This document shows, piece after piece, positions 10,369 to 64,000 of a stretch of 64,000 nucleotides of DNA. Location of the stretch: NCBI GenBank assembly GCA_002937655.1, contig PTKH01000005.1:8781-72780 (forward strand), given 5' to 3'. The notes beneath the pieces are model-generated. The model made no database searches and was not told where the DNA came from. It saw only the letters and a program-made list of their open reading frames with translations. This DNA comes from Alphaproteobacteria bacterium MarineAlpha9_Bin3 (GTDB lineage: Bacteria > Pseudomonadota > Alphaproteobacteria > TMED109). Position 1 is the stretch's first letter, and each line of letters begins with the position of its first letter. A program made the position numbers and the translations under genes.

Positions 10369-11042
10369 TTGATATTACCTTTATTATTACTTAAAGAAAG
10401 TATAGGCCTTCCTTTTAAATTTATGGTAGAATTTTCTAAATTATAAATAAAACCTTTTCCATTTAGTGATCCCCAACTCCCATCAACAATAATATTTTCG
10501 TTGCTACTTATTAAATTGTCATCAACATTATAAGTTATTTCATTAGTAAAAAATTTTGTACCTCTCGAAGATTCTATAATAACATCATTTTTAAGTTCTA
10601 AAATATTTTTATTATTATTTAATATACCTTTTGTGGCATAAAAATACATATCTTTTTCATTTGATAGTTTATAATGTCCTTCAGGTTTTTTTAAAATAAT
10701 TATTGCTGAATTAGAAATATCTTTTTTCGCTTCATATGCTTTTACAGTAAAAATAGATTTGTTTTTATTTTTAAATAGTATAACTGGCTTTACTAAAGTA
10801 TCAGGCTGGTTGATTTCTTGGTCTTTATCTATATTTAAAATTTCTTTATTTGGAACTTTTTGCCACCATCTTATAATTATAATTATTGATAATACAATTA
10901 ATGAAATAATTATAATTTTTAATATATATTTTTTTATACTAAATTTTTTAGTTGTATCTTTTTCTCTGTTTTGAACATTATTTATCCAAGATTTATGGAA
11001 AGGTTTATTTTGCAATTTCATAACTATTGATTTTTGATGCAA
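10365..11042 (-). CDS. lptC: LPS export system protein LptC
   Basis: 225 aa with a single N-terminal TM helix. Positioned between kdsD and lptA. Confidence 0.7.
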   Translation of the reverse strand: MHQKSIVMKLQNKPFHKSWINNVQNREKDTTKKFSIKKYILKIIIISLIVLSIIIIIRWWQKVPNKEILNIDKDQEINQPDTLVKPVILFKNKNKSIFTVKAYEAKKDISNSAIIILKKPEGHYKLSNEKDMYFYATKGILNNNKNILELKNDVIIESSRGTKFFTNEITYNVDDNLISSNENIIVDGSWGSLNGKGFIYNLENSTINLKGRPILSLSNNKGNIK

Positions 11043-22271: not shown

Positions 22272-22365
22272 TAAATCCTATAAATTCTCTTTTATAACTT
22301 GCATATTTTGTTATAGATATATATATAGGACCTCTAAATATTAAGGATTTTTAAGGAAAATAGAA

Positions 22366-22569
22366 ATGCCTAAGATTAAAACAAAAAGTGGTGCAAAAAA
22401 GAGATTTAGCTTAACAAGTTCTGGAAAAGTAAAAATGAATCAGGCAGGTAAGAGACATGGAATGATAAAGAGAACTACTAAATTTATTAGAAATGCTAGA
22501 GGTTCTACTGTAATGGTAGATGCCGATGCTAAAATAGTAAAAAAGAATTTTTTAAGAAATAGCTTATAA
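22366..22569 (+). CDS. rpmI: 50S ribosomal protein L35
   Basis: 67 aa, [14 protein letters not shown]. In infC-rpmI-rplT synteny. Confidence 0.95.
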
Positions 22570-22594
22570 AAATTATTGATGAAGAGGAAATAAA

Positions 22595-26555: not shown

Positions 26556-26645
26556 GGAGGGGTGGCCGAGCGGTCGAAGGCGCACGCTTGGAAAGCGTGT
26601 ATACAGGAAACTGTATCGTGGGTTCGAATCCCATCTCCTCCGCCA
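26556..26645 (+). tRNA. tRNA-Ser (anticodon GGA), long variable arm, encoded CCA
   Basis: Hand-folded. Acceptor GGAGGGG/CTCCTCC, anticodon stem CACGC/GCGTG with loop TTGGAAA, T-arm GTGGG-TTCGAAT-CCCAT, then G-CCA. Confidence 0.9.
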
Positions 26646-46772: not shown

Positions 46773-46823
46773 TTGACGTTCATATAATGAACGATATATA
46801 ATAATTTTGTTCATTCTGTGAAC
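46773..46823 (+). promoter_or_regulatory. sigma-70-like promoter (TTGACG-N18-TATAAT) with two 15-bp palindromic operators
   Basis: TTGACG 46773-46778 and TATAAT 46797-46802. Perfect palindrome GTTCAT-ATA-ATGAAC at 46778-46792. Near-palindrome GTTCAT-TCT-GTGAAC at 46809-46823. Confidence 0.6.
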
Positions 46824-46851: not shown

Positions 46852-47460
46852 ATGAATAATCATGAAATAAAAAAAGATGATATGACTTTGAATGTTTTAT
46901 CTGCAGTAGATGCTGATAGTCAGATTACTCAAAGATCATTAGCTGCTGAATTGGGAATAGCTTTAGGTTTGACAAATGCCTATTTTAAAAAATGTGTTGA
47001 TAAAGGATTAGTAAAAATCAAGCAAATACCTAAAAAAAGGTATTCATATTATCTTACAAAAAAGGGTTTTACTGAAAAAGCTAGGTTATCTGCTGAATAT
47101 TTAAAATATTCTTTTAATTTTTTAAAAAATACAAAAGTAGAATGCGAAAAAATTATTAAGATATGTATTGATAATAATAATTTATCGATAGTTTTGTCTG
47201 ATAAGTCTGACTTTGCAGAAATCTTAATTTTAAGCGCATTAGACACTAAAGTTGATATTATTGGTGTATTAGGAAATGAAGAAAATAAGTATTGTGGAAA
47301 AAAAGTAATAAAATCTTTAAAAAATATTAATAATGTAGATGTTATCATTATGACTAAATTAGAGAATTCAAATTCTAGATTTGATTACCTTAAAAAGAAA
47401 TATAAAAAATATAATATTATAATTCCACAATTTCTAAATATAGATGGTGAGGAAACATAA
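46852..47460 (+). CDS. winged-helix (MarR-like) transcriptional regulator with Rossmann-like C-terminal domain
   Basis: ITQRSLAAELGIALGLTNAYFKKCVDKGLVK...YYLTKKGFTEKARL wHTH. The C-terminal alternating beta/alpha pattern (IVLSDKSDFAE...VDIIGVLGNEE...VDVIIMT) resembles NeuD/sugar-transferase N-domains. Confidence 0.65.
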   Translation: MNNHEIKKDDMTLNVLSAVDADSQITQRSLAAELGIALGLTNAYFKKCVDKGLVKIKQIPKKRYSYYLTKKGFTEKARLSAEYLKYSFNFLKNTKVECEKIIKICIDNNNLSIVLSDKSDFAEILILSALDTKVDIIGVLGNEENKYCGKKVIKSLKNINNVDVIIMTKLENSNSRFDYLKKKYKKYNIIIPQFLNIDGEET

Positions 47461-47960
47461 TGAAGTATTGGTATGTTATCTATACTATTCATAATCAAGA
47501 ATTTAGGGCTGAAGCTAATTTAAAAAAACAAGGCTTCCAGCTATATTTGCCAAAATATATAGGTACTAGAAAGCATGCTAGAAAAGTAGATAAAATATTA
47601 AAGCCCTTATTTCCAAGATATTTATTTATAAAATTAGATCTATCAATAGATAATATCTCAAAAATTAACTACACTTTTGGAGTAAATAAATTAGTTACTT
47701 TAGGAACTGAGCCTAATATACTACCTGATTTTATAGTTGATAACCTTAAGGCGCAAGAAGATAAAAATGGTAATCTAGATTCTATAATTAATTCAATATA
47801 TAAAATGGGAGAAAATGTAAAATTTAGTAATGGAGTTTTACAAGGAAATAATGCAGTGTTTATGGGTAAAACTGAGAAGCAAAGAGTTTTTGTGTTATTA
47901 GATATTCTTGGAAGAAAGCTTAATATAGCTGTACCTCCTATGTCTTTACAACCTCTGTGA
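47460..47960 (+). CDS. rfaH: RfaH-like specialised NusG paralogue (transcription antiterminator)
   Basis: 166 aa. MKYWYVIY N-terminus, KPLFPRYLFIKLD, and a C-terminal KOW-like GENVKFSNGVLQGNNAVF...RVFVLLDILG. Colinear by eye with E. coli RfaH (162 aa). Start overlaps the regulator stop (TAATG). Confidence 0.7.
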   Translation: MKYWYVIYTIHNQEFRAEANLKKQGFQLYLPKYIGTRKHARKVDKILKPLFPRYLFIKLDLSIDNISKINYTFGVNKLVTLGTEPNILPDFIVDNLKAQEDKNGNLDSIINSIYKMGENVKFSNGVLQGNNAVFMGKTEKQRVFVLLDILGRKLNIAVPPMSLQPL

Positions 47961-48264: not shown

Positions 48265-49915
48265 ATATCATTTAATAGCAGACTTTAATATAGAACCTCT
48301 TAAAGGTTTTATTTTAAATTTAGATAGGGAGGCTGAAGTTTCGATATCACCCTACGGCCAGGTGATGCAAGAAATTTATAAAAAAGAAGTTTTTGATAAT
48401 AAAAATGTGATTTTATGGACTTTTATACAAAGTGTTATTCCTAGTTTTTCTGAAGTTTTAAATTTAAATAAGTACAGTGAAAAAAATTGTTTACAAGAAG
48501 TTAAAAAATATAGTGAAGCAATAATCAATTTGTCAAAAAAACAAAAATTTGTTTTTTTAGTTTCTTGGACTTTAGAAGATAGTATTAGTTCTTATGGTCT
48601 TTTAGATTGGAAACCAGATATAGGAGTATCATATATTTTAGCTAAAATTAATATTTATCTTTCTGACCTATTGTCTAAATATAATAATATTTTTATATTA
48701 AATTCTAATTATTGGATACAAAATGCTGATAAGGTGGCACCTAAAATATGGTATGCCACCAAGGTACCTTATTCTCCTTCTGTATTTGATAATGCAGCAA
48801 AAGATATCTATTCTAGTTATCTAGCTCTTAATGGCTTAAATAAAAAAATAATTATATTAGATTTAGATAATACTTTATGGGGAGGAGTTGTAGGAGAATT
48901 AGGTATTGAAGGCGTAAATATTGGAGGCCATAATTTTATAGGAGAAGCTTATCAAGAATTTCAAAGAGCTTTATTAGCACTATCTAATAAAGGTATCCAG
49001 CTAGCAATAGTTAGTAAAAATGATGAGATTGTTGCATTGGAAGTAATTCAAGAACATGATGCTATGGTTTTAAGAAAAAATAATTTTTCAGGTTGGAAAA
49101 TAAATTGGAAAGATAAAGCTAGTAATATTAAAGCTCTTTTAGATGAATTAAATTTAGGTACTTCATCGGCCATATTTATTGATGATAGTCCAATAGAAAG
49201 AGATTGGGTAAAAAAAAGTTTACCTGAAGTTTTAGTACCTGATTGGCCTGATGACCCAGCACTTTATGTAAGAGCATTAGCTGAGCTTAATTGCCTACAT
49301 ACGGCTACAATCAGTAACGAGGATAGAAATCGTACAAAAATGTATGTAGCTGAAAGACAAAGAAAAGAAATTAAAAAAAACAAAGTTTCTTTGGATGATT
49401 GGCTAATTTCTTTAAATACAAAAGTTACAATTCATGCGCTAAATAATAATAATATTAAAAGAGTTACCCAACTATTTAATAAAACAAATCAATTAAATTT
49501 AAAAACTAGACGTTTATCAGAAAAAGAAATTTTAAAATGGCTTAATGAAAATAAACAAAATAAAAAAATGCACATAATAGAAGTAGAAGACAGATTAGGT
49601 AGTATAGGATTAGTAGGTATAATAAGTTTAGAATTAGTAAATAAAGAAGTAATTATAGAAGATTTTATATTAAGTTGTAGGGCAATGGGAAGAAAAATAG
49701 AGCACTTAATGTTATCTCTGGCTTATATTTTTGCAAAAGAAAAAGAAGCAAAAGTTATTAAGGCGGAATTTATTCCTACGAAAAGAAATAGACCAACTTA
49801 TGATATTTTTAATGATTCTATCTTTAAATATTCAAAAGATAATATATTTTTATCAAAAATTGATGCTCAAATAAATTTTCCTAAAGAATTATCTATAGAA
49901 AATAAATCGATTTAA
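48233..49915 (+). CDS. FkbH-like HAD-IIIC phosphatase/acyl-loading protein
   Basis: ILDLDNTLWGG (DxDxT), SKN and DD HAD motifs. C-terminal FILSCRAMGRKIE motif typical of FkbH-like domains. A more likely start is ATG 48254. Confidence 0.75.
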   Translation: MLNGLKIMLNKYHLIADFNIEPLKGFILNLDREAEVSISPYGQVMQEIYKKEVFDNKNVILWTFIQSVIPSFSEVLNLNKYSEKNCLQEVKKYSEAIINLSKKQKFVFLVSWTLEDSISSYGLLDWKPDIGVSYILAKINIYLSDLLSKYNNIFILNSNYWIQNADKVAPKIWYATKVPYSPSVFDNAAKDIYSSYLALNGLNKKIIILDLDNTLWGGVVGELGIEGVNIGGHNFIGEAYQEFQRALLALSNKGIQLAIVSKNDEIVALEVIQEHDAMVLRKNNFSGWKINWKDKASNIKALLDELNLGTSSAIFIDDSPIERDWVKKSLPEVLVPDWPDDPALYVRALAELNCLHTATISNEDRNRTKMYVAERQRKEIKKNKVSLDDWLISLNTKVTIHALNNNNIKRVTQLFNKTNQLNLKTRRLSEKEILKWLNENKQNKKMHIIEVEDRLGSIGLVGIISLELVNKEVIIEDFILSCRAMGRKIEHLMLSLAYIFAKEKEAKVIKAEFIPTKRNRPTYDIFNDSIFKYSKDNIFLSKIDAQINFPKELSIENKSI

Positions 49916-54842: not shown

Positions 54843-55952
54843 GTGAGATATTGTAAAAGATGTGTTTTGCCTGATACAAAACCAGGTGTAGTAATAGATG
54901 AATCTGGTATCTGCAGTGTATGTAGAACGGTAGAAGCTAAAAAAACAATTGATTGGCAAAGACGTGATTTACAGTTGAGAGAAATATGTAATTCCATTAA
55001 AGGCAGAAACGGTCACGGGTATGATTGTATTGTTCCTGTCAGTGGAGGTAAAGATAGTATTTATCAAGTACATGCTATGAAAAATATTTATGGTTTAAGA
55101 GTTCTGGCAGTTAATATAAGTGCACATATTCATACTGTAGAGGGTATATTAAATCTTAATTCAATGATTGAAAACTTAGATGTAGACTTTATTAAAGTTG
55201 CAGTGCGGCCCAGCACACATAGAAAAATTAGAAAAATGGCATTAATAAAAGTTGGAAACCCAAATTTTGCAGAACATAGAATTGTTTTTTCAGCGGTAGC
55301 TCGAGCAGCCTTATTTTATAATGTCCCACTAGTAGTATGGGGAGAAGATATAGCAGTTGAATTTGGTGGTAATGTAGATAAAAAAAGTGAACCTGGCTCT
55401 GCTGAGGATATGATAAATAATGATTTATTTAGAGAAATAGGATTTGAAGAACTGATCGGAGATGAAATCAATCAAAATGAACTATTTTTTTATAAGAATC
55501 CTGAAAAGAGTCTTGTTAAGAAAGCTAATATAAAAAGTATTTATTTGGGGCATTATCATTGGTGGGATGGAACTAAGAATTATGAAGTAGCTAAAAAATA
55601 TGGATTTATTCCAAGAAAAGAAGGACCTCTCTCAGGAAATTATATTGATTATGATAACATAGATGAGCGATTATGTGAGATTCATCTTTGGTTCAAATTT
55701 ATAAAATTAGGTTTCTGGAGGCCAACAGACCATGTATGTTATAAAATATGGAATGGATATATGGAAAGAGAAGAGGCTGTAGAAATAGTGAATAAATTAC
55801 AATATGATTTCCCGACTGAATATTTTCAAGATTTCTTAGATTTTCACGATTTAAAAGAAGATGAATTTTGGGATATAGCAGAAAAATGGCGAAATAAAGA
55901 AATTTTTCATAAAGTTAATAATGAATGGAGATTAAAGAACGAATTAAGATAA
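54843..55952 (+). CDS. N-acetyl sugar amidotransferase (PseA/WbpG/WbuX family), paralogue 2
   Basis: GTG start. CKRC...CSVC Zn-ribbon and canonical PP-loop VPVSGGKDS. Confidence 0.8.
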   Translation: MRYCKRCVLPDTKPGVVIDESGICSVCRTVEAKKTIDWQRRDLQLREICNSIKGRNGHGYDCIVPVSGGKDSIYQVHAMKNIYGLRVLAVNISAHIHTVEGILNLNSMIENLDVDFIKVAVRPSTHRKIRKMALIKVGNPNFAEHRIVFSAVARAALFYNVPLVVWGEDIAVEFGGNVDKKSEPGSAEDMINNDLFREIGFEELIGDEINQNELFFYKNPEKSLVKKANIKSIYLGHYHWWDGTKNYEVAKKYGFIPRKEGPLSGNYIDYDNIDERLCEIHLWFKFIKLGFWRPTDHVCYKIWNGYMEREEAVEIVNKLQYDFPTEYFQDFLDFHDLKEDEFWDIAEKWRNKEIFHKVNNEWRLKNELR

Positions 55953-55993
55953 GGTTTTTTAATTATTACCAAAACTATTTTATTCACTTATGC

Positions 55994-56028
55994 TTGACGT
56001 TCATAATATGAACATAATATACTATAAT
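55994..56028 (+). promoter_or_regulatory. second copy of the TTGACG / GTTCAT-N3-ATGAAC promoter-operator cassette
   Basis: TTGACG 55994-55999. Palindrome GTTCAT-AAT-ATGAAC at 55999-56013. TATACT 56018-56023 has the same 18-nt spacing as the first cassette; TATAAT lies at 56023-56028. Confidence 0.6.
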
Positions 56029-56108
56029 TGCAAATTATTTGAAAATATTATCTAAGTAAATAATATTTTAATAAGTTGCTCTTGGGTTAATTTTAAATTC
56101 ACCCTAAT

Positions 56109-56120
56109 GGCGGTAGCGTG
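56109..56120 (+). promoter_or_regulatory. ops (operon polarity suppressor) element, exact GGCGGTAGCGTG
   Basis: Perfect match to the enterobacterial ops consensus GGCGGTAGnnTG. On the coding strand of the leader, followed by T6, 107 nt before ATG 56228. Confidence 0.65.
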
Positions 56121-56227
56121 TTTTTTCATAAATATTTTTATTAAAGTAAAATTTTAATTTTTAAATTGTAAAAAATTAAAATTACGAAAGATATATAAAC
56201 TTATAATAGAATGGAAGAATATTTAAA

Positions 56228-57283
56228 ATGTATAAAAATATACCAAAAGATATTTCTTTTGTTAATAAAGAAAAATTATCCAAATATATAACATATTCAA
56301 ATTCATCGATAAAAGATGCGATGACTAAATTAAACCTTACTCTAGAATTATTTCAAATAATTCTGGATCAGGAAGGTAAATTTTTAGGAACTTTAACGGA
56401 TGGTGATATTAGAAGAGGTCTGCTTGCAGGCAGTGAAATTAATGATAATGTAATGAAATTTATTAATTCTAATCCTCTATTGGGAGAAATAAGTAAGGAA
56501 AGTGAAAATTTAAATACTTTAAACAAAGTAGATAGATATCCAATGTTTTTGCCTATAATTGATAAAAAATTTCTATTAGAAGGTATATTAATAAAAACTG
56601 AAATTACTGATATAAATCACGCTTTAATTGTTGCAGGAGGAATAGGCTCACGTTTAGGTGATTTAACAAAACATATACCTAAACCAATGCTAGAAGTAGA
56701 TGGAAAGCCTATACTAGAACATTGTATCAATAAATTAGAGGATGCTAATATTAGTACGATTTATGTTTCTGTTAATTATTTAAGTGAGCAAATTATTAAT
56801 TTTATAAAAAGTAAAAATTTTAAATCTAATATCATACCAGTAAAAGAAAATTCCAAATTAGGAACAATAGGTTCTTTATTTTTAATAAAAGAAGAAACTA
56901 ATTATCCATTATTAGTTATGAACGCTGATTTGGTTACAACATTATCTCTTTCAGCTTTAATGTCATTTTATAGAGCTGAAAACGTAGATGGTTTAATTAC
57001 TGCTGCAACTTTTGAGAGTAGTATACCTTTTGGCGTATTAAAATATAATAGTTTAGGTCAATTGGAAAGGATTGAAGAGAAGCCAATATCTAAAAATTTA
57101 ATAGCTGCAGGTGTATATATACTGAATAAAAATATTTCCTCATTAATTAAAAAAGAAGAGTTTATAGATATGCCAGAATTATTAGATAAAGCTATAAAAA
57201 ATGGATTAAATATAGGTGTTTTCCCAATACATGAAAAATGGACTGATATTGGAAGACCTGAAGATTATTTCAATATAAAGTAA
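56228..57283 (+). CDS. CBS-domain-containing sugar-phosphate nucleotidyltransferase (PtmE-like architecture)
   Basis: N-terminal CBS pair (GTLTDGDIRRGL). C-terminal IVAGGIGSRLGDLTKHIPKPML nucleotidyltransferase domain. Confidence 0.75.
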   Translation: MYKNIPKDISFVNKEKLSKYITYSNSSIKDAMTKLNLTLELFQIILDQEGKFLGTLTDGDIRRGLLAGSEINDNVMKFINSNPLLGEISKESENLNTLNKVDRYPMFLPIIDKKFLLEGILIKTEITDINHALIVAGGIGSRLGDLTKHIPKPMLEVDGKPILEHCINKLEDANISTIYVSVNYLSEQIINFIKSKNFKSNIIPVKENSKLGTIGSLFLIKEETNYPLLVMNADLVTTLSLSALMSFYRAENVDGLITAATFESSIPFGVLKYNSLGQLERIEEKPISKNLIAAGVYILNKNISSLIKKEEFIDMPELLDKAIKNGLNIGVFPIHEKWTDIGRPEDYFNIK

Positions 57284-57329
57284 AAAAAGAATTAAATTTT
57301 TATAATTAAAATACTTATTGAGGGAATAA

Positions 57330-58019
57330 ATGAATAATTTAAATAAAAACACAATAATATGTTTTGTTGCACATCCAGATGATGAAGTTCTTGGCCTAGG
57401 TGGTACATTAATTAAGCATGTAAACCAAAAGGATGACGTTCATATTATTATTTTTTCATTAGGGGAAGAATCTAAAAATAGTAAAGATATTAATGCTGAA
57501 AGACGCTTAAGTAGCGCAAAGAAATGTTCAAAAATTATAGGTAGTAAAAGCTTAAAATTGTTGAATTATCCAGATCAAAAAATAGATACAGTTCCAAAGC
57601 TTGAGATAATTAAAAAAATAGAAAATATTATATATAAGTTAAAGCCTAATATTGTATATACACATCATGAAGGGGATATAAACCACGATCATCAAATAAT
57701 TAATCACGCCGTTTTGACTGCATTAAGACCTATGACTTTATTGGGACATAGATGTGAAGTTAGAACTTTTGAAACAATTTCATCTACTGAGCAATCGCCT
57801 TATATAGATAAGTATTTATTTAAACCTAATTTTTTTGTAGATATTGAATCCGAATGGGAAAAAAAAATGATAGCCATAAAGGCGTATAAAGATGAGCTAG
57901 GAGTATTTCCACATCCTAGATCTATAAAATCAATTGAGGCATTAGCTATTAAACGAGGTACAGAGTCAGGTTTAAAAAAAGCAGAAGCTTTTCGTATTAT
58001 TAGGAAAATATGGCATTAA
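57330..58019 (+). CDS. PIG-L / LmbE family de-N-acetylase
   Basis: VAHPDDEVLGLGG and HHEGDINHDH motifs. Confidence 0.8.
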   Translation: MNNLNKNTIICFVAHPDDEVLGLGGTLIKHVNQKDDVHIIIFSLGEESKNSKDINAERRLSSAKKCSKIIGSKSLKLLNYPDQKIDTVPKLEIIKKIENIIYKLKPNIVYTHHEGDINHDHQIINHAVLTALRPMTLLGHRCEVRTFETISSTEQSPYIDKYLFKPNFFVDIESEWEKKMIAIKAYKDELGVFPHPRSIKSIEALAIKRGTESGLKKAEAFRIIRKIWH

Positions 58020-58025
58020 AAAATA

Positions 58026-59822
58026 ATGTTTAAATTCAAACAAAAACATATTCATATTATTAATTTTTTACAAATATCTAAAGATTTAAAATTAGTTTCA
58101 TTACAGCGTTTTATATTTTTAGTATCTATTATAATTTTTGTAATGTTATTTGATGCTCTAAGTATTATTTCTATAATGCCATTGGTTCAATTTATTCAAG
58201 TAGGACAGAATATTGATGCATTTATTGATACGGCAGGTTATGGAAAGCAGTTAGTAGCTGTTTATAATTTTTTTTCAATTAAATTTAATTTAATTAGTTT
58301 ATCTATAATTTTATTATTGTTTATAGTGCTGAGGCAATTTATTAATATATTTGAAATACAAGAAACAGAAAGAACTAGATTAAGTATTGCCAAAAATTTA
58401 TCTATTAATTGTTTTTCCAAAATTATGCAGGCGAAGGCTGATTATATTAGAAACATAAAGCAGGGTCAATTCACAGTAATTTGTGAGAGTGAATGTAGTA
58501 GAGCTAGTCTTGTATATAAAGGAATTCTTCAGTTTATTAGTACATTATTTCAAATAGGAGCTTACGCTGTAGTAATGTTTTATGTAGCGCCGCTTATGAC
58601 GTTACTAGCAGTTTTAGTAATTATGATTCTTATTATATCAATGTATACATTTGTAAAGAGGTCTCATAGGGCAGGACAAATGGTGGTTAACGTGAGACAG
58701 AAGTTTTACAATTTTATTAGTGAGAATTTTTCAATATGGAGATTATTTAAATTTGGAGGATCCATAAAAAATGAACTTAATAAGGTAGAGTTGTTAGCAG
58801 ATTCATATGCAAATAAACAATTATCTATTATTAAATATAATAATTTATCTCGTTTTATAATTGCTATTGTTGCGATGTTTTTATGTGTAGTTTTCTTAAA
58901 TTTATCGGTAAATTATTTTAATTTTGACTTTAGTAAGATAACTTTATTCGCGTTAATATTTATTAGAATGATACCTCTAGGCCAGAGGTTAAATGGTATT
59001 ATTAATTCTATAGTTTCATGGGCACCTTCGTTAACTATTATTAAGAATACATTGGATGAAGCTGATAAGCATAAAGAAGAGTTGAATGTTGGTTCTGAGT
59101 TTAAAACTTCTAAGGCGGAAATAAAATTTCAAAATGTTAGTTTTAGTTATAGGACATCAAAAGATAAAATTATTTTGAATAATATAAATTTAACTATACC
59201 GTCTAATAAAATTACGGCAATTGTAGGAAGATCTGGTGCAGGTAAATCAACATTAATTGACTTGCTTCCTAGAATTATATCTCCTAATAACGGTTCTATT
59301 TATATCAATGATATTGATATTAAAGATTTTTCTTTATCTTCTTATAGAAATAATATTTCATTTGTATCACAAGATAATATTTTATTTGATGGTAGTATCA
59401 AGGAAAACATTGGATATTATAATCAAGATGCTAAATTTTCAGAAATCAAGCAGGCTAGCATCTTATCTGGAGCAAATGATTTTATTAAAACATTACCAAG
59501 TCAATATGATTATAATATTGGGGAAAAAGGACAAAAACTCTCAGGGGGACAAAAGCAAAGGTTAATTCTTGCAAGAGCGTTTTTAACAAAATCAAGAATT
59601 TTAATTTTAGATGAAGCAACTAGCGCTCTTGATCATTTATCAGAATTACATATAAAAAAATCTATAAAAGAATTTTTGAAAGTAAATAATTCCACTATTA
59701 TTATAATTGCTCATAGACATACTACGATAGAAAATGCAGATTATGTAGTCTATTTGGATAAAGGCGAAATTAAGGATACAGGAAAGCCTGAATATATATT
59801 TAATAAATATTATTCAGCATAA
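58026..59822 (+). CDS. fused TMD-NBD ABC exporter (MsbA/PglK type)
   Basis: Six predicted TM helices, then GRSGAGKST, LSGGQKQR and ILILDEATSALD. Confidence 0.85.
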   Translation: MFKFKQKHIHIINFLQISKDLKLVSLQRFIFLVSIIIFVMLFDALSIISIMPLVQFIQVGQNIDAFIDTAGYGKQLVAVYNFFSIKFNLISLSIILLLFIVLRQFINIFEIQETERTRLSIAKNLSINCFSKIMQAKADYIRNIKQGQFTVICESECSRASLVYKGILQFISTLFQIGAYAVVMFYVAPLMTLLAVLVIMILIISMYTFVKRSHRAGQMVVNVRQKFYNFISENFSIWRLFKFGGSIKNELNKVELLADSYANKQLSIIKYNNLSRFIIAIVAMFLCVVFLNLSVNYFNFDFSKITLFALIFIRMIPLGQRLNGIINSIVSWAPSLTIIKNTLDEADKHKEELNVGSEFKTSKAEIKFQNVSFSYRTSKDKIILNNINLTIPSNKITAIVGRSGAGKSTLIDLLPRIISPNNGSIYINDIDIKDFSLSSYRNNISFVSQDNILFDGSIKENIGYYNQDAKFSEIKQASILSGANDFIKTLPSQYDYNIGEKGQKLSGGQKQRLILARAFLTKSRILILDEATSALDHLSELHIKKSIKEFLKVNNSTIIIIAHRHTTIENADYVVYLDKGEIKDTGKPEYIFNKYYSA

Positions 59823-59847
59823 CATTAAATTATAAAGGAAATATGAA

Positions 59848-60846
59848 TTGATTTTAAATAAAAAAAATATATTGATTACTGGCGGAACTGGTTCTTTTGG
59901 AAAAAAATTTATTGATATGGTTTTAAAAAAATATAAACCTAATAAATTGATTATTTTCAGTCGAGATGAGCAAAAGCAATATGAAATGGCTCAAAATATT
60001 TCAGAAAAAAAATATCCAAATATTCGTTATTTTATTGGAGATGTGAGAGACAAAAATAGGCTATATAGAGCTTGTGCAGATATAGACTATATTATTCATG
60101 CTGCGGCAATGAAGCATGTAACTTCTTCTGAGTATAATCCTACGGAATGTATTGATACTAATATTCACGGGGCCCAAAATGTTATTGATGCAGCTATAAA
60201 TAATAACGTAAATAAAGTAATAGCACTTTCTACAGACAAAGCAGCAAGTCCTATAAATTTATATGGAGCAACTAAGTTATGTTCTGATAAGTTGTTTATT
60301 GCTGCAAATAATTTATCAGGAAAACATCAAACTCGTTTTTCAGTTGTTAGATATGGAAATGTAATTAATTCCAGAGGAAGTGTAATACCTCATTTTAGAA
60401 AGTTATTACAAGAAGGTGCAAAGAAACTTCCTATAACAGATATTAACATGACCAGATTTGTAATAAAACTGGATCAAGGTGTAGATTTTGTTTTAAAAGC
60501 ATTATTTAACATGAGTGGAGGAGAAATTTTTGTACCTAAAATACCTAGTATTAATATTTTAGATTTAGTTACATGTATGGCTGGTGAAGGTCAATATGAA
60601 GTTATAGGAATTAGGCCGGGTGAAAAATTGCATGAAGTTATGATTCCTAGAGAAGAATCTTTAAATTGTATTGATATGGAGGAATATTACATTATTCAGC
60701 CAATGTTTTCCTGGTGGAACACTGACAAACTAAAAAAATCTATTGGTAATAAAGGTAAAGCTGTTTCAAGGTCTTTTGAATATTCAAGTCATACTAATAA
60801 AAATTTTTTATCCTTAAAAAGTATAAGAAATATCGTATTAAAGTAA
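59848..60846 (+). CDS. pseB: UDP-N-acetylglucosamine 4,6-dehydratase (inverting)
   Basis: TTG start. ITGGTGSFGK, FSRDEQKQ and YGATKLCSDK; 332 aa, colinear with PseB/FlaA1. Confidence 0.85.
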   Translation: MILNKKNILITGGTGSFGKKFIDMVLKKYKPNKLIIFSRDEQKQYEMAQNISEKKYPNIRYFIGDVRDKNRLYRACADIDYIIHAAAMKHVTSSEYNPTECIDTNIHGAQNVIDAAINNNVNKVIALSTDKAASPINLYGATKLCSDKLFIAANNLSGKHQTRFSVVRYGNVINSRGSVIPHFRKLLQEGAKKLPITDINMTRFVIKLDQGVDFVLKALFNMSGGEIFVPKIPSINILDLVTCMAGEGQYEVIGIRPGEKLHEVMIPREESLNCIDMEEYYIIQPMFSWWNTDKLKKSIGNKGKAVSRSFEYSSHTNKNFLSLKSIRNIVLK

Positions 60847-60871
60847 TAATTTGTATGGTTAATATTAATTA

Positions 60872-61855
60872 ATGTTAAAGTTAGGAATTAGAGTTTCCAC
60901 GGAAGGTAGCTCAGGAAGAGGTCACTTTCATAGATGTTTAAATATTAGGCGTTATATAAACGAAAAAGTTTATTGGTTTGTAGATGAGCAATCTTCTTTT
61001 ATTAAAAATAGAATCCCTAATTTTGATTACTTATTTGTTGAGAAAGATAGAAATAATTTTTTAACTTTAAGAAAATATATTCAAAAAAGTCATATAAATT
61101 GTGTTTTGATTGATAGTTATCATATTAATGTTACTGATTTTTATAATATAAATTTAAATGTTCCAATTATAGCTTTGATTGACAAAAATATCAGAATAAA
61201 AGCTGATCTCGTAGTGAGTCCACAGCCGATAGATATAGAATTACAAAATGATGTTAAATATCTTTGTGGCCCAAAATATTCGCCAATTAACTCTATATTT
61301 TTTAATAAAGACAAAAAAGAATTTTTTAAAAATAAAATTCTGATTTCTTTTGGCGCTTATGACAATAATAGAATTTCAATAAATGTTGTGAAAGCTATCA
61401 AAAATATTCTTTCATCTAATTCATGGAAATTAGATGTTGTAATTTTACTTGGTAAGGATTCTTTAATCATCAACGAGATTAGAACCCTAATAAAAAATTT
61501 TAAAAATTTTCAATTAATAATAGAACCAAAAAATATTGAAAACATATATAATGAATGTAATATAGCCTTAGGGGCACCAGGATTATCATATATGGAAAGA
61601 TTAGCTTCAGGTTTACCTAATATATTAATACCACAAAATAATATTCACATAGACTTAATAGATAAATGGGTAAAGTTAGGTTGTGCGATAAAAGCTGAAA
61701 ATTCTATAAGGTCAATTCAAGATAGCTTAAATTTACTTATTTTAGATAATACTTTAAAAAATAAGCTAATTAAAACCGGTCATAAATTTATAGATGGAAA
61801 AGGAGGAATTAGAATAGCAAAAGAAATAAAAAAGTTGGTAAATTTTTATGATTAA
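60872..61855 (+). CDS. pseG: UDP-2,4-diacetamido-2,4,6-trideoxy-beta-L-altropyranose hydrolase-like GT-B protein
   Basis: IRVSTEGSSGRGHFHRCL N-terminus matches the PseG R-x-D/E-x4-G-x-GH-x-x-R pattern. Positioned between pseB and pseC. Confidence 0.65.
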   Translation: MLKLGIRVSTEGSSGRGHFHRCLNIRRYINEKVYWFVDEQSSFIKNRIPNFDYLFVEKDRNNFLTLRKYIQKSHINCVLIDSYHINVTDFYNINLNVPIIALIDKNIRIKADLVVSPQPIDIELQNDVKYLCGPKYSPINSIFFNKDKKEFFKNKILISFGAYDNNRISINVVKAIKNILSSNSWKLDVVILLGKDSLIINEIRTLIKNFKNFQLIIEPKNIENIYNECNIALGAPGLSYMERLASGLPNILIPQNNIHIDLIDKWVKLGCAIKAENSIRSIQDSLNLLILDNTLKNKLIKTGHKFIDGKGGIRIAKEIKKLVNFYD

Positions 61856-63023
61856 ATTTCCATATTCTAGGCCTGAAATTTTAAATTCAGATAAAGAAGC
61901 TGTATTAGAAGTACTTAATAAAGGGTATTTAACACAAGGTGAAAAATTATTAGAATTTGAGGATAAATTACAAAGTACTTTTAAATGTAAAAATGTTATA
62001 GCATGTAATTCCGGAACTGCTGCTTTACATTTATTATACTTAGCACTAGGTTTAGGCCCAGATGATGGCCTACTAACTACTTCCATAACTTTTTTGGCAA
62101 CTGCAAGTGCGGCTAAGATGTGTGATGCTCCTGTAATACTTGCAGATGTAGACCCAATATCAGGTTTATTAACACCTGAAAATGTTGAAAAGGCGATAAT
62201 TAAATCAAAAGTTAAAATTAAAGTAATTACTGTAGTTCATTTAGCAGGTAAAATTTGCAATATGGAGGGTATAGCAGAAGTGGCTAAAAAATATGGATGC
62301 ATGATAGTGGAAGATGCGTGTCATGCCCCAGGAGGAGAATATATAAATAGCAAGAATAAACATTATGTTGTTGGAAGCTGCAAATATAGTGTCGCTTCTA
62401 CGTTTAGTTTTCATGCAATTAAACATATATCAATGGGTGAAGGAGGTTGTGTGACAACTAATGATAAAATTATTGCTAATAAAATTCGTCGCAAAAGAAA
62501 TCACAGCATGATTAAAGAAAAAAATAAATTTAGTATTAGGTTTGAAGACGCAAGACCTTGGTATTATGAAATGCAAGAATTAGGTTGGAATTATAGGTTA
62601 GATGAAATGTCGTCTGCATTAGGTATTAGCCAGCTTAAAAGATTATATTCAGGAATTGAAAAGAGAAAAAAACTAGCTGCAACATATTGTAATGAATTAA
62701 AAAGCTTAAAAGATTTTATACTGCCAGCTAAGCAATCTACTATAGATAATAGTGTTTGGCATTTGTATTCTGTTTTAATAGATTTTAATAAGATTGGAAT
62801 GTCTCGTGGAGATTTTATGAACAAGCTTTATGATATTGGTATTGGCACGCAAGTTCATTATATTCCATTATTTTATCAACCTTTTTTTAAAGAAGATCCT
62901 AAAAATTATCCAGGAGCTGTATCTTATTATAATTCAACTTTGAGTTTACCTATGTATGTAAGTTTAACTAATAAAGATATAAATTTTATCTCAGATTGTA
63001 TTAAAAATATAATTGATGAATAA
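61848..63023 (+). CDS. pseC: DegT/DnrJ/EryC1-type PLP aminotransferase (UDP-4-amino-4,6-dideoxy-AltNAc transaminase)
   Basis: FSFHAIKHISMGEGG PLP-lysine motif; 391 aa. Overlaps pseG by 8 nt. Confidence 0.8.
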   Translation: MIKFPYSRPEILNSDKEAVLEVLNKGYLTQGEKLLEFEDKLQSTFKCKNVIACNSGTAALHLLYLALGLGPDDGLLTTSITFLATASAAKMCDAPVILADVDPISGLLTPENVEKAIIKSKVKIKVITVVHLAGKICNMEGIAEVAKKYGCMIVEDACHAPGGEYINSKNKHYVVGSCKYSVASTFSFHAIKHISMGEGGCVTTNDKIIANKIRRKRNHSMIKEKNKFSIRFEDARPWYYEMQELGWNYRLDEMSSALGISQLKRLYSGIEKRKKLAATYCNELKSLKDFILPAKQSTIDNSVWHLYSVLIDFNKIGMSRGDFMNKLYDIGIGTQVHYIPLFYQPFFKEDPKNYPGAVSYYNSTLSLPMYVSLTNKDINFISDCIKNIIDE

Positions 63024-64000
63024 AAAAAATATAAATAACTTGTTCTATGTAGATAGTTTAGAAGGCTATAATATTGCTCTAAAACAACTAAATTCATTAC
63101 ATGATGAAATTATAACTGATAATCCTCTTTTAGCTAATACACCAAATTTAGATAAGAAAATAATTGATATTTCAAAACTTATTAAACAGAAAGATGGAAA
63201 TAAAATAGGCCAAATTATATTTTCCATGTCTAATGATATTGAAAAAATTTTTATAAAAAATAAATATAAATATAAATTTAAGTATTATACTGATAAATTA
63301 GGTTTATATTTATCTATTAAATCTATGTGTTATACCATAATTGAAAAATCATTAATATTTTCTATATTTTTCAAAAAATTTAAAATAAATAAATTCACAA
63401 TAATTATTAATAAAAGTGATTATTTTGATACTCATAACCCTTTTAATTTTCCCAGATTTTCAAATATATCAAAATTTATAGCTAAAAAGTCTTTTTTAAA
63501 TATTAACAAAATAGATATTCAAGAAATAAAAATAGAAAATTCAAAAATAATTAATAATACTGAAGAAAAAAATATTTTTTTGCGTGTATTGGTTTGGCCT
63601 ACATCCTATATAATTTTTCGTTTAATATATTTTATAAATATTACTTTTATAAAAAAAGATATTATTTTTTATGGTAAAAAATGTGAGTCATTAAATGAAA
63701 CTCTAGCTTGGCTATTTTTTAAAGGCTTCAAGACAAAAGCGATTACATTTCCAAAGTTAGGTATATATAAAAAAAAAATGAACAAAAAATTAGAAAATAT
63801 TCTTGTTAATGATTTAAGCTCTACTATATCGAAGCATTTAAGTTTTTTACCCTTTTCCAAATCGCAAATTAATATTCAAAAAAATATGATTTTAGATCAT
63901 ATTTATATGGGTATGGATAGATTACAGTCAGAAACAAAAGTATATGAGAATTTTTTTTTAAAAAACAAGATAAAATATCTAATTTCATCAAGTTTTTATG
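63016..64000 (+). CDS. hypothetical protein, 3'-truncated by the window edge (absent from the supplied ORF track)
   Basis: Hand translation from ATG 63016 (MNKKNINNLFYVDSLEGYNIALKQL...) stays open for 328 codons to base 64000. The start overlaps the pseC stop by 8 nt. Confidence 0.6.
   Translation, partial: MNKKNINNLFYVDSLEGYNIALKQLNSLHDEIITDNPLLANTPNLDKKIIDISKLIKQKDGNKIGQIIFSMSNDIEKIFIKNKYKYKFKYYTDKLGLYLSIKSMCYTIIEKSLIFSIFFKKFKINKFTIIINKSDYFDTHNPFNFPRFSNISKFIAKKSFLNINKIDIQEIKIENSKIINNTEEKNIFLRVLVWPTSYIIFRLIYFINITFIKKDIIFYGKKCESLNETLAWLFFKGFKTKAITFPKLGIYKKKMNKKLENILVNDLSSTISKHLSFLPFSKSQINIQKNMILDHIYMGMDRLQSETKVYENFFLKNKIKYLISSSFY

Follow-up and report, generated by a model that had tools for sequence, protein, structure and literature searches.

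A candidate RfaH/ops-type antitermination signal, with a hairpin of its own, in the leader of a nonulosonic-acid/glycan operon of an AT-rich marine alphaproteobacterium

RfaH and ops are the textbook example of an elongation factor that is loaded in a sequence-specific manner, an example worked out in enterobacteria alone. In Escherichia coli, ops is described as an exemplar of the consensus pause; the side chains of K10, H20, R23 and R73 of RfaH contact ops, and alanine at K10, H20 or R73 cripples RfaH recruitment (PMC5995543). The JUMPstart element has been assigned to Gammaproteobacteria (PMC2864571). In the survey of Wang et al. 2020 (PMC7593976), 18% of rfaH genes are placed in Alphaproteobacteria, cell-envelope genes are described as neighbours, and one cluster is tied to an HTH regulator. 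The survey gives E48, I93 and F130 as determinants of RfaH autoinhibition, regards recruitment as understood for E. coli RfaH alone, and proposes that ops contacts and autoinhibition came late in RfaH evolution. Two further kinds of system are close enough to be compared with the locus studied here. PrfaH of IncX plasmids is likewise a cis-encoded RfaH-like factor whose own promoter is closely followed by an ops-like site, but it is enterobacterial and plasmid-borne and controls conjugation genes (PMC11880322); the likeness is one of description. UpxY of Bacteroides and LoaP of Firmicutes are dedicated NusG paralogues at the head of long glycan or polyketide operons, a likeness to the present locus, but they use other recruitment signals (PMC11685472).

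The DNA that we analyzed is a 64-kb stretch from MarineAlpha9 (the whole stretch is called the window), with a GC content of 26.8%. Five proteins encoded in it are identical to entries in the GenBank records of the Tara Oceans MAG 'Alphaproteobacteria bacterium MarineAlpha9_Bin3'. MarineAlpha9 is described as a streamlined marine lineage of high AT content and is listed apart from HIMB59 and Pelagibacterales (PMC8879329), and for that reason the label 'SAR11-type', which an earlier note on this DNA had given to the host, fits its lifestyle but not its taxonomy. The ops 12-mer, GGCGGTAGCGTG, lies in a 275-nt gap (55953-56227) between two plus-strand genes. This gap had been taken for the largest non-coding gap of the window, which holds only if the 67-aa ORF at 22366-22569 is a real gene; otherwise, the 323-nt stretch at 22272-22594 is longer. 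The features of the locus and of the regulator genes upstream are collected in Table 1.

Table 1. Features of the ops-bearing leader, its neighbours and the regulator genes, in window coordinates.
Feature	Position	Strand	Remarks
Promoter/operator box before MarR-like gene	46773-46823	+	TTGACG, then GTTCATATAATGAAC (46778-46792); second copy GTTCATTCTGTGAAC (46809-46823)
MarR-like winged-helix regulator gene	46852-47460	+	202 aa; Pfam HTH_24, E 8.9e-10; overlaps start of RfaH-like gene
RfaH-like NusG paralogue gene	47460-47960	+	166 aa; Pfam NusG NGN domain, E 7.6e-19
WbuX-type amidotransferase gene	54843-55952	+	5' neighbour of the ops gap
Predicted sigma-70-type promoter	55994-56023	+	-35 TTGACG (55994-55999), 18-nt spacer, -10 TATACT (56018-56023)
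Perfect 7-1-7 palindrome GTTCATAATATGAAC	55999-56013		inside the promoter spacer; putative operator
Hairpin	56084-56104	+	5' arm GGGT (56084-56087); 3' arm ACCC (56101-56104) inside TCACCC (56099-56104)
4-nt spacer TAAT	56105-56108	+	length and A at third base are family features
ops 12-mer	56109-56120	+	
T6 run TTTTTT	56121-56126	+	directly 3' of ops
CBS/nucleotidyltransferase gene	56228-57283	+	3' neighbour of the ops gap; ATG at 56228
Target operon	56228-64000, beyond window	+	CBS/nucleotidyltransferase, PIG-L deacetylase, ABC exporter, PseB-like, PseG-like, PseC-like aminotransferase, further gene off window end

A scan of both strands of the window returned this site as the sole exact match to GGCGGTAGNNTG, and none of 100 dinucleotide-preserving shuffles contained an exact match. 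The sole match with one mismatch, at 48348-48359 on the minus strand, falls within a 560-aa ORF. Nine of the 12 ops bases are G or C, against the 26.8% of the window. The element starts 86 nt past the -10-like TATACT and ends 107 nt before the ATG of the CBS/nucleotidyltransferase gene, with the T6 run adjoining it. The earlier note had described the 12-mer as a single-copy G/C outlier with this spacing in the leader, and our results agree on all of these points. No terminator-like site was predicted at the T6 run; the corresponding site 3' of ops is occupied by A/T-rich runs in AT-rich relatives and by GGAAAA in high-GC relatives. The element is on the same strand as the downstream genes, i.e. 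the non-template (coding) strand, and matches the consensus GGCGGTAGnnTG exactly. G2, T11 and G12 agree with the G-10/Y-1/G+1 pause consensus, and by analogy with E. coli a pause is predicted at T11 (56119). The sequence thus places ops in what appears to be a transcribed leader, downstream of a predicted promoter and transcription start and upstream of a long operon. The suggestion that this operon continues beyond the window was borne out by contigs of the same population, on which it reaches at least 11 kb from the ATG and adds genes for a 636-aa protein, an acetyltransferase, an ATP-grasp protein and NeuB.

The 12-mer does not stand alone. It forms the 3' end of a two-part module (56084-56120) that consists of a hairpin, a 4-nt spacer and ops. 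A covariance model, R1, was made from 35 alphaproteobacterial loci with an ops-like match beside an RfaH-like gene, the window being left out, and comprises a 7-bp hairpin plus ops. Because loops are of unequal length, the hairpin escaped RNAalifold when the raw MAFFT alignment was used; the structure was then set by hand and the sequences were realigned with R1. Searched against the 64 kb with filters off, R1 gave one significant match, a full-length one at 56073-56126 on the plus strand (23.1 bits, E 1.5e-5), and the runner-up matches had E values above 2. Because the 35 sequences were picked for an ops-like core, the independent information in R1 lies in the hairpin, the TCACCC arm and the spacing. 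A rough estimate from base composition alone puts the joint chance of a TCACCC at 4 nt, an A at the third spacer base and an upstream GGGT at ~1e-6. In the alignment of the 35 sequences (A3), the invariant columns are CACCC, GCGGTAGC and T11, and conservation is 90% or more at three further positions, namely the T that precedes CACCC, the A in third place of the spacer, and G12. The window matches all 14 invariant columns with the same spacing. It also has every part by which we define the module: a complementary 5' arm, the TCACCC arm, four spacer bases of which the third is A, and [T/G]GCGGTAGC-N-TG. Its hairpin shows no non-standard pairs in the R1 alignment and belongs to the minimum-free-energy fold of the leader.

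The form that recurs in relatives, as seen in an ops scan with one mismatch allowed, is an inverted repeat CGGGTGA...TCACCCG followed by GAC and then TGCGGTAGC[G/A/T]TG, often with GAAAA after it. Position 1 of ops is T in most family members (G in the window), and C9 is invariant; the spacer reads TAAT or TGAT in AT-rich relatives. Among 83 model-aligned elements, the TCACCC consensus holds at 90% or more at each position and the hairpin arms pair in 83.8% of cells versus at most 50% with slid partners, pairing figures that lean towards structure because the alignment was fitted to R1. The closing pair covaries (CG 60, GC 3, UA 3, AU 2, UG 5, GU 3) and the innermost pair is AU or GU, while the constancy of CACCC precludes covariation at the five pairs in the middle. 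The hairpin loop ranges from 2 to 14 nt across the family, and therefore a single-strand hairpin is favoured over a duplex operator. Taken together, these sequence comparisons indicate that GGCGGTAGCGTG is the 3' end of a larger conserved hairpin-plus-ops signal.

How does this signal compare with the E. coli element? The two have in common an exact GGCGGTAGnnTG on the non-template strand in the leader of a long polysaccharide operon, a hairpin just 5' of ops, so that the stem-loop architecture of JUMPstart is found in the window as well, and a NusG paralogue whose best match is RfaH. They differ in the hairpin itself, which is cUGGu/gCCAg with a 1-nt spacer in E. coli JUMPstart and CGGGUGA/UCACCCG with a spacer of 3-4 nt in the alphaproteobacterial elements, and the E. 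coli mechanism has no role for a TCACCC hairpin, a point that counts against antitermination here. The Rfam families gave no match in the leader or in five alphaproteobacterial loci; for the ops/JUMPstart family RF01707, there was none in 55900-56300 at E<=10 and none in the five loci at E<=1. The E. coli rfb leader, used as a positive control for RF01707, scored 60 bits, with the cUGGu/gCCAg hairpin, one base and ops, and we therefore take the Rfam result as a true negative. Conversely, R1 matched the E. coli element through ops only (16.4 bits), skipping the hairpin. These cross-tests show that the two elements have the same architecture with a different hairpin sequence and spacing.

We next consider how the module is linked to RfaH-like genes. 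For a set selected by protein, one genome per species was searched for relatives of the window protein and the best 80 loci were kept; these are 35-43% identical to it and come mostly from Rhizobiales, Rhodospirillales and unclassified Alphaproteobacteria. The R1 module was found beside the gene at E<1e-3 in 48 of these best 80 loci, with three further weak matches. Under a strict pattern, the module lies 46-110 nt (median 59) past the stop codon of the RfaH-like gene, on the same strand, in 43/73 loci, the 73 being genome loci with a called RfaH-like ORF that were chosen by protein only; four of the remainder end less than 200 nt from the gene. The window is an exception to this spacing, its module being located 8149 nt downstream of the RfaH-like gene, in the same gene island. 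The distance of 8.1 kb, compared with adjacency in most relatives, is an observation that speaks against antitermination.

Metagenome contigs were also scanned motif-first, with the pattern WTCACCCNNANKGCGGTAGCNTGWWW, for which we estimate that a few chance matches are expected. The pattern had been lengthened because matches of a shorter one on viral contigs looked like chance: about 110 of 120 lacked the hairpin arm, and a rough guess of the chance expectation is ~100-200. One recurrent element on viral contigs did bear the hairpin; no RfaH-like ORF was found near it, and it had no match in phage and plasmid collections. The longer pattern gave 43 contigs, every one of which has the complementary 5' arm (43/43). 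An RfaH-like ORF was present on 22 of the 43 and lay at most 150 nt upstream of the module in 20 of those 22. We then classified the first same-strand ORF after the module for 67 non-redundant elements. NAD-dependent epimerase/dehydratases (18/67) and Polysacc_synt_2 proteins (14/67) lead, followed by cytidylyltransferases (6/67) and GFO/IDH/MocA oxidoreductases (5/67); asparagine-synthase-like proteins, ABC exporters and methyltransferases also occur. By these family assignments, the first genes after the module are the heads of glycan operons, including sugar-nucleotide and nonulosonic-acid operons. The use of the NTG of ops as a start codon, which came up in 9 of 69 naive ORF calls, was rejected as an artefact of the longest-ORF rule. 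A scan of relatives and metagenome contigs for coding-strand matches in glycan leaders, proposed in the earlier note, was thus positive both in the 43 motif-first contigs and in the families of the 67 first ORFs.

The AT-rich relatives bear on whether the element is kept in leaders like that of the window. Five metagenome contigs of 27-29% GC (L245, L229, L257, L259 and L264) carry TCACCC-T[AG]AT-GGCGGTAGC[GAT]TG, with G at ops position 1 and a spacer of the same type as in the window, while the loop and the flanks have diverged. In an alignment of AT-rich leaders, the conserved blocks were the promoter box, in the four sequences reaching that far, and the hairpin arms with spacer and ops. L245 has the same gene block as the window (deacetylase, HisH-like, HisF-like, WbuX, WbuX), and its second WbuX is 83% identical in amino acids to that of the window; after this block come one extra PglD-like gene, a 181-nt leader with the element, and an operon of cytidylyltransferase, DegT aminotransferase, NeuB and UDP-GlcNAc 2-epimerase genes. 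L229 has an RfaH-like gene and a 218-aa ORF (68% identical to the PglD-like protein of L245), with the element 803 nt past the RfaH-like stop codon and the same cytidylyltransferase-led operon behind it. In L059, a 27%-GC MAG labelled Candidatus Pelagibacterales, the order is MarR-like gene, RfaH-like gene, a weaker module CACCCAGAGTGCGGTAGCTAT (19 bits), PIG-L deacetylase and a 598-aa ABC exporter. The last two are 67% and 64% identical to the products of genes 2 and 3 of the window operon, and with the module in front of them, the orthologous operon of another AT-rich lineage therefore has the element in its leader.

In the sister lineages L085-L092, the RfaH-like protein is 63% identical and the gene order is LepA, EamA, MarR-like, RfaH-like ... 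WbuX, WbuX; no module was found within the 10 kb fetched, with filters off. The second WbuX of L089 is 96% identical to that of the window, and the gap of ~300 nt after this gene in L089-L092 is unrelated to the window leader and contains no element. L085 and L086 are uninformative about absence at an L245-type site because their contigs break off within the PglD-like gene. The first gene of the operon has orthologues (54-64% identical) that occupy mid-operon positions and have no element near them. The lack of an element in the 10 kb of L085-L092 and beside these mid-operon orthologues is counted against antitermination. Contigs with an identical first-gene protein belong to the same population and have identical leaders, and for that reason they say nothing on selection. 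The expectation that the element would be conserved in orthologous leaders is thus supported by the PIG-L/ABC exporter operon of L059 and by the diverged AT-rich leaders, and it fails at the homologous junction of L089-L092. Our reading of these gene orders is that the island is a mosaic, in which promoter and element seem to move with the nonulosonic-acid module and are not kept at one fixed junction.

In GenBank, PPR16751.1, the 166-aa protein, already carries the name 'Transcription antitermination protein RfaH'. Its best NCBIfam match was RfaH (TIGR01955), at 122.2 bits, which is under the equivalog cut-off of 144.5; other NusG-type families scored less, UpxY at 72.8 bits, NusG at 44.6 and LoaP at 44.5, so that UpxY and LoaP differ from the present system in score as well as in signal. 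E. coli RfaH was also its best solved relative (E 6e-15, versus 6e-7 for NusG), and RfaH structures came top in the PDB in a Foldseek search with its AlphaFold model. In that model, the N-terminal domain is confident, and confidence is low for the C-terminal domain, which shows mixed strands and one helix (139-149). Autoinhibited RfaH has an alpha-helical C-terminal domain in its free state; the low-confidence model falls short of showing such a fold switch, a point against antitermination. The set of residues with which E. coli RfaH contacts ops (K10/H20/R23/R73) is absent, the window protein having I10, N20, K23 and F73, and H65-T66-T67 is replaced by N-I-S; Q24, T72 and R138 are kept. At the autoinhibition sites, E48 is changed to K, and V93 and F134 (aligned with E. 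coli F130) are kept. Against antitermination, we note that K10, H20 and R73, three of the four ops-reading side chains of E. coli RfaH, are missing, that E48 is changed, and that the score is below the equivalog cut-off. The 65 proteins linked to an element have T72 in 65/65 and Q24 and R138 in 64/65 each; position 20 is H or N, 23 is mostly R, 10 mostly Q/H/R, 73 mostly V/F/I/L/Y, 48 mostly A/R/K, and 65-67 mostly R-W-R. This NusG paralogue is RfaH-like, with RfaH as its nearest kin in profile, sequence and fold, but it is not an RfaH equivalog: its score is under the cut-off, and it differs from E. coli RfaH at K10, H20, R73 and E48.

The promoter region shows a second conserved feature. The promoter block CTTGACGTTCATAnTATGAAC and the -10 at 18-nt spacing are kept in the window and in L245, L229 and L257, and the sequence downstream diverges, which supports the view that the promoter predicted about 80 nt upstream of ops is real. 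GTTCATATAATGAAC and GTTCATTCTGTGAAC are copies of the ops-leader palindrome with 1 and 2 mismatches, respectively, for which the chance expectation is 0.58 in the whole window. Both are found in the 76-nt gap 5' of the MarR-like gene, the first directly after a TTGACG and with a TATAAT downstream. The palindrome box is also present 5' of the MarR-like gene in L002, L085, L089 and L059, L059 has the palindrome at three places, and the MarR-like/RfaH-like gene pair recurs in L059, L253 and L265. The MarR-like protein scored 64 bits against the NCBIfam model MarR_EPS (TIGR04176), below the cut-off of 88. As judged from this arrangement, it is the obvious candidate for a protein that binds the palindrome, and the shared palindromic operator suggests common control of initiation at the regulator operon and the ops-led operon.

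The earlier note had proposed that ops and the NusG paralogue act on the long glycan operon. This is supported by the linkage of the module to RfaH-like genes, by the matches in glycan leaders, by the AT-rich relatives and by the conserved promoter, and we consider it probable that the site is of the RfaH/ops antitermination type, a hairpin-ops signal that would load the 47460-47960 protein for the operon of at least 11 kb. The signal would be transcribed from the conserved promoter about 80 nt upstream. On reaching ops, RNA polymerase would pause, as G2, T11 and G12 predict, and the exposed non-template strand would form a small GCGGTAGC hairpin, and the RfaH-like paralogue would be loaded onto the polymerase. 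The polymerase so modified would then read the nonulosonic-acid/glycan operon, over at least 11 kb, without premature termination or polarity. Control would be two-tier, at initiation through the shared palindromic operator and then at elongation. Homology and genomic association are the grounds on which we infer that the polymerase pauses, that the non-template DNA is recognised, that antitermination follows, and which protein binds the operator.

A different possibility is recognition mainly at the RNA level, in which the UCACCC hairpin and its single-stranded tail would be bound by the RfaH-like protein or a partner, with ops serving mainly as a pause. LoaP, also a NusG paralogue, has been reported to recognise a leader RNA hairpin. 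The 3' arm is invariant in sequence although the loop can be anything from 2 to 14 nt long, and a purely structural hairpin needs no such invariance; moreover, the window protein lacks the E. coli DNA contacts K10, H20 and R73. The stem also ends 15 nt before the predicted pause, a distance too great for a his-type pause hairpin. On the other hand, Q24 (64/65) and T72 (65/65), both on the DNA-binding face, are kept in the element-linked proteins, and positions 3-9 of ops (CGGTAGC) are invariant although the pause consensus needs none of them (PMC5995543). This invariance beyond what pausing needs points to specific reading of the same core as in E. coli, and we regard a mainly RNA-based recognition as unlikely.

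The match of G2, T11 and G12 to the consensus, of which ops is an exemplar (PMC5995543), would also be explained if the site were a factor-independent consensus pause, for example one that paces transcription with leader translation or folding, and recruited no NusG paralogue. Against such a plain pause stand the tight genomic linkage of the element to RfaH-like genes and the invariance of the central ops bases, which pausing does not require, and we hold it to be quite improbable. Still less credit is due to the idea that GGGTGA...TCACCC is a duplex operator for a dimeric protein such as the MarR-like regulator. It is an inverted repeat, and the gene for a winged-helix regulator does sit beside the RfaH-like genes, but arms spaced 2-14 nt apart are ill-suited to a fixed dimer, the element has a fixed strand relative to the genes that follow it, and the fixed-spacing promoter palindrome GTTCATAnTATGAAC is the better operator candidate, which makes this reading very improbable. 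That the site is a functionless, chance G/C-rich 12-mer, an idea to which the single copy in the window and the identical same-population contigs, mute on selection, lend some room, has a negligible probability given 0/100 shuffles, 14/14 invariant columns of an independent family alignment matched, and a core kept in diverged AT-rich leaders.

By title, essentially all of the listed papers with both JUMPstart and RfaH deal with Gammaproteobacteria or with general RfaH/NusG biology; the lone alphaproteobacterial paper by title is on Caulobacter and has one or two mentions of each term. Wang et al. 2020 alone brings RfaH, ops and Alphaproteobacteria together in the literature searched. Its alphaproteobacterial RfaH clusters have a gene context like that of the window, and the sections consulted give no cis element for them (PMC7593976). 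In the present family, an ops core goes with proteins that lack K10, R73 and E48. For RfaH with SAR11 there was nothing in the literature searched, most subscription journals being outside it, and a 2025 paper on a Pelagibacterales O-chain cluster leaves RfaH, NusG and antitermination unmentioned. Within the same literature, we found no earlier description of the alphaproteobacterial hairpin-plus-ops family. The earlier note had known of no description of ops/RfaH control in such bacteria; this agrees with the lack of RfaH/SAR11 literature found, with the reservation that alphaproteobacterial RfaH genes had been reported (PMC7593976) and that the protein was already named RfaH in GenBank.

With this family, alphaproteobacterial RfaH-like genes gain a concrete candidate cis element, their mode of recruitment having been stated as unknown by Wang et al. 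2020 (PMC7593976). The presence of the same DNA core despite differing reader residues bears on the evolution of the ops-RfaH pair. A second invariant signal, the TCACCC hairpin, is present beside ops, and recognition may be of a modified kind, given the divergent reader residues and the invariance of the hairpin arm. We put forward, as a tentative and somewhat doubtful proposal, that the ops core (GCGGTAGC-N-TG) might be ancient in Alpha- and Gammaproteobacteria, and that a distinct alphaproteobacterial RfaH subfamily, with no K10, R73 or E48 lock, might read a bipartite signal that includes the UCACCC RNA hairpin through another pocket (H/N20, R/K23, Q24, T72 and a hydrophobic residue at 73). 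If this were true, ops recognition would not be a late gain that came with the enterobacterial residues, contrary to the current evolutionary model, and abundant marine AT-rich lineages would control hypervariable surface-glycan islands at the level of elongation. The starts of such operons can be annotated in genomes and metagenomes with R1 or with the pattern TCACCC-NNAN-KGCGGTAGC-NTG. Nonulosonic-acid/glycan islands shape interactions with phages and grazers, and in AT-rich bacterioplankton, as far as their sequences indicate, strain-variable islands of this kind appear to be expressed as promoter-operator-ops cassettes that seem to travel with the biosynthetic module.

A 7-1-7 palindrome, GTTCATAnTATGAAC, lies inside promoters of the TTGACG-N18-TATAAT type in the window, and these promoters precede both the ops-led glycan operon and the operon of the MarR-like and RfaH-like genes. 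The palindrome is kept in AT-rich metagenome relatives (L245, L229 and L257), in sister lineages (L085 and L089) and in L059, a MAG titled Pelagibacterales. The palindrome is a likely operator for the MarR-like regulator.

Features located in the window and in two sister lineages
Feature	Source	Position	Remark
Palindrome copy	window	55999-56013	7-1-7
Palindrome copy	window	46778-46792	7-1-7
Palindrome copy	window	46809-46823	7-1-7
tRNA gene	window	26556-26642	sole Rfam match at gathering threshold
323-nt stretch	window	22272-22594	sole content, 67-aa ORF 22366-22569
Coding ops look-alike AGCGGTAGCTCG	window	55292-55303	within WbuX2 coding sequence
Coding ops look-alike AGCGGTAGCTCG	L085	12532	within WbuX2 coding sequence
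Coding ops look-alike AGCGGTAGCTCG	L089	13017	within WbuX2 coding sequence

Rfam searches of the 64-kb window at the gathering threshold found no rRNA and no further known RNA family. If the 67-aa ORF is not a gene, the 323-nt stretch, and not the ops leader as the earlier note had it, would be the window's longest non-coding gap.

Immediately 3' of ops G12, GGAAAA is conserved in many of the high-GC elements of an alignment of 35 alphaproteobacterial elements (A3), and AT-rich elements have A/T runs at this position, T6 in the window. The module of hairpin, spacer and ops occurs twice in Bradyrhizobium retamae (L019, 4289-4341 and 4528-4581, about 240 nt apart), 3' of the RfaH-like gene; the second copy, GTGCTGTAGCCTG, is the weaker one, scoring 28 bits. 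The stem of the L059 element (10510-10555) can be drawn as CUGG/CCAG, with arms identical to those of the E. coli JUMPstart hairpin, and its ops ends in TAT instead of NTG.

Another element, cggtGGGTGAgccggtggtcaatgcacaaaTCACCCTTACTGCGGTAGCaaat, with both hairpin arms and the ops core, recurs in IMG/VR contigs classed as viral (L111, L112, L121, L128, L138, L157, L165 and L205). No RfaH-like ORF was found near it in these contigs, and searches of phage and plasmid collections gave no match.

The look-alike within WbuX2, which has two mismatches to ops, is conserved in the window, L085 and L089, and loose motif scans of related genomes will pick it up. WbuX2 of L089 is 96% identical to that of the window (54843-55952), whereas the RfaH-like protein of the sister lineages L089-L092 is only 63% identical and their sequence downstream of WbuX2 is unrelated to the window's. 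The glycan island is apparently a mosaic with recombination breakpoints.
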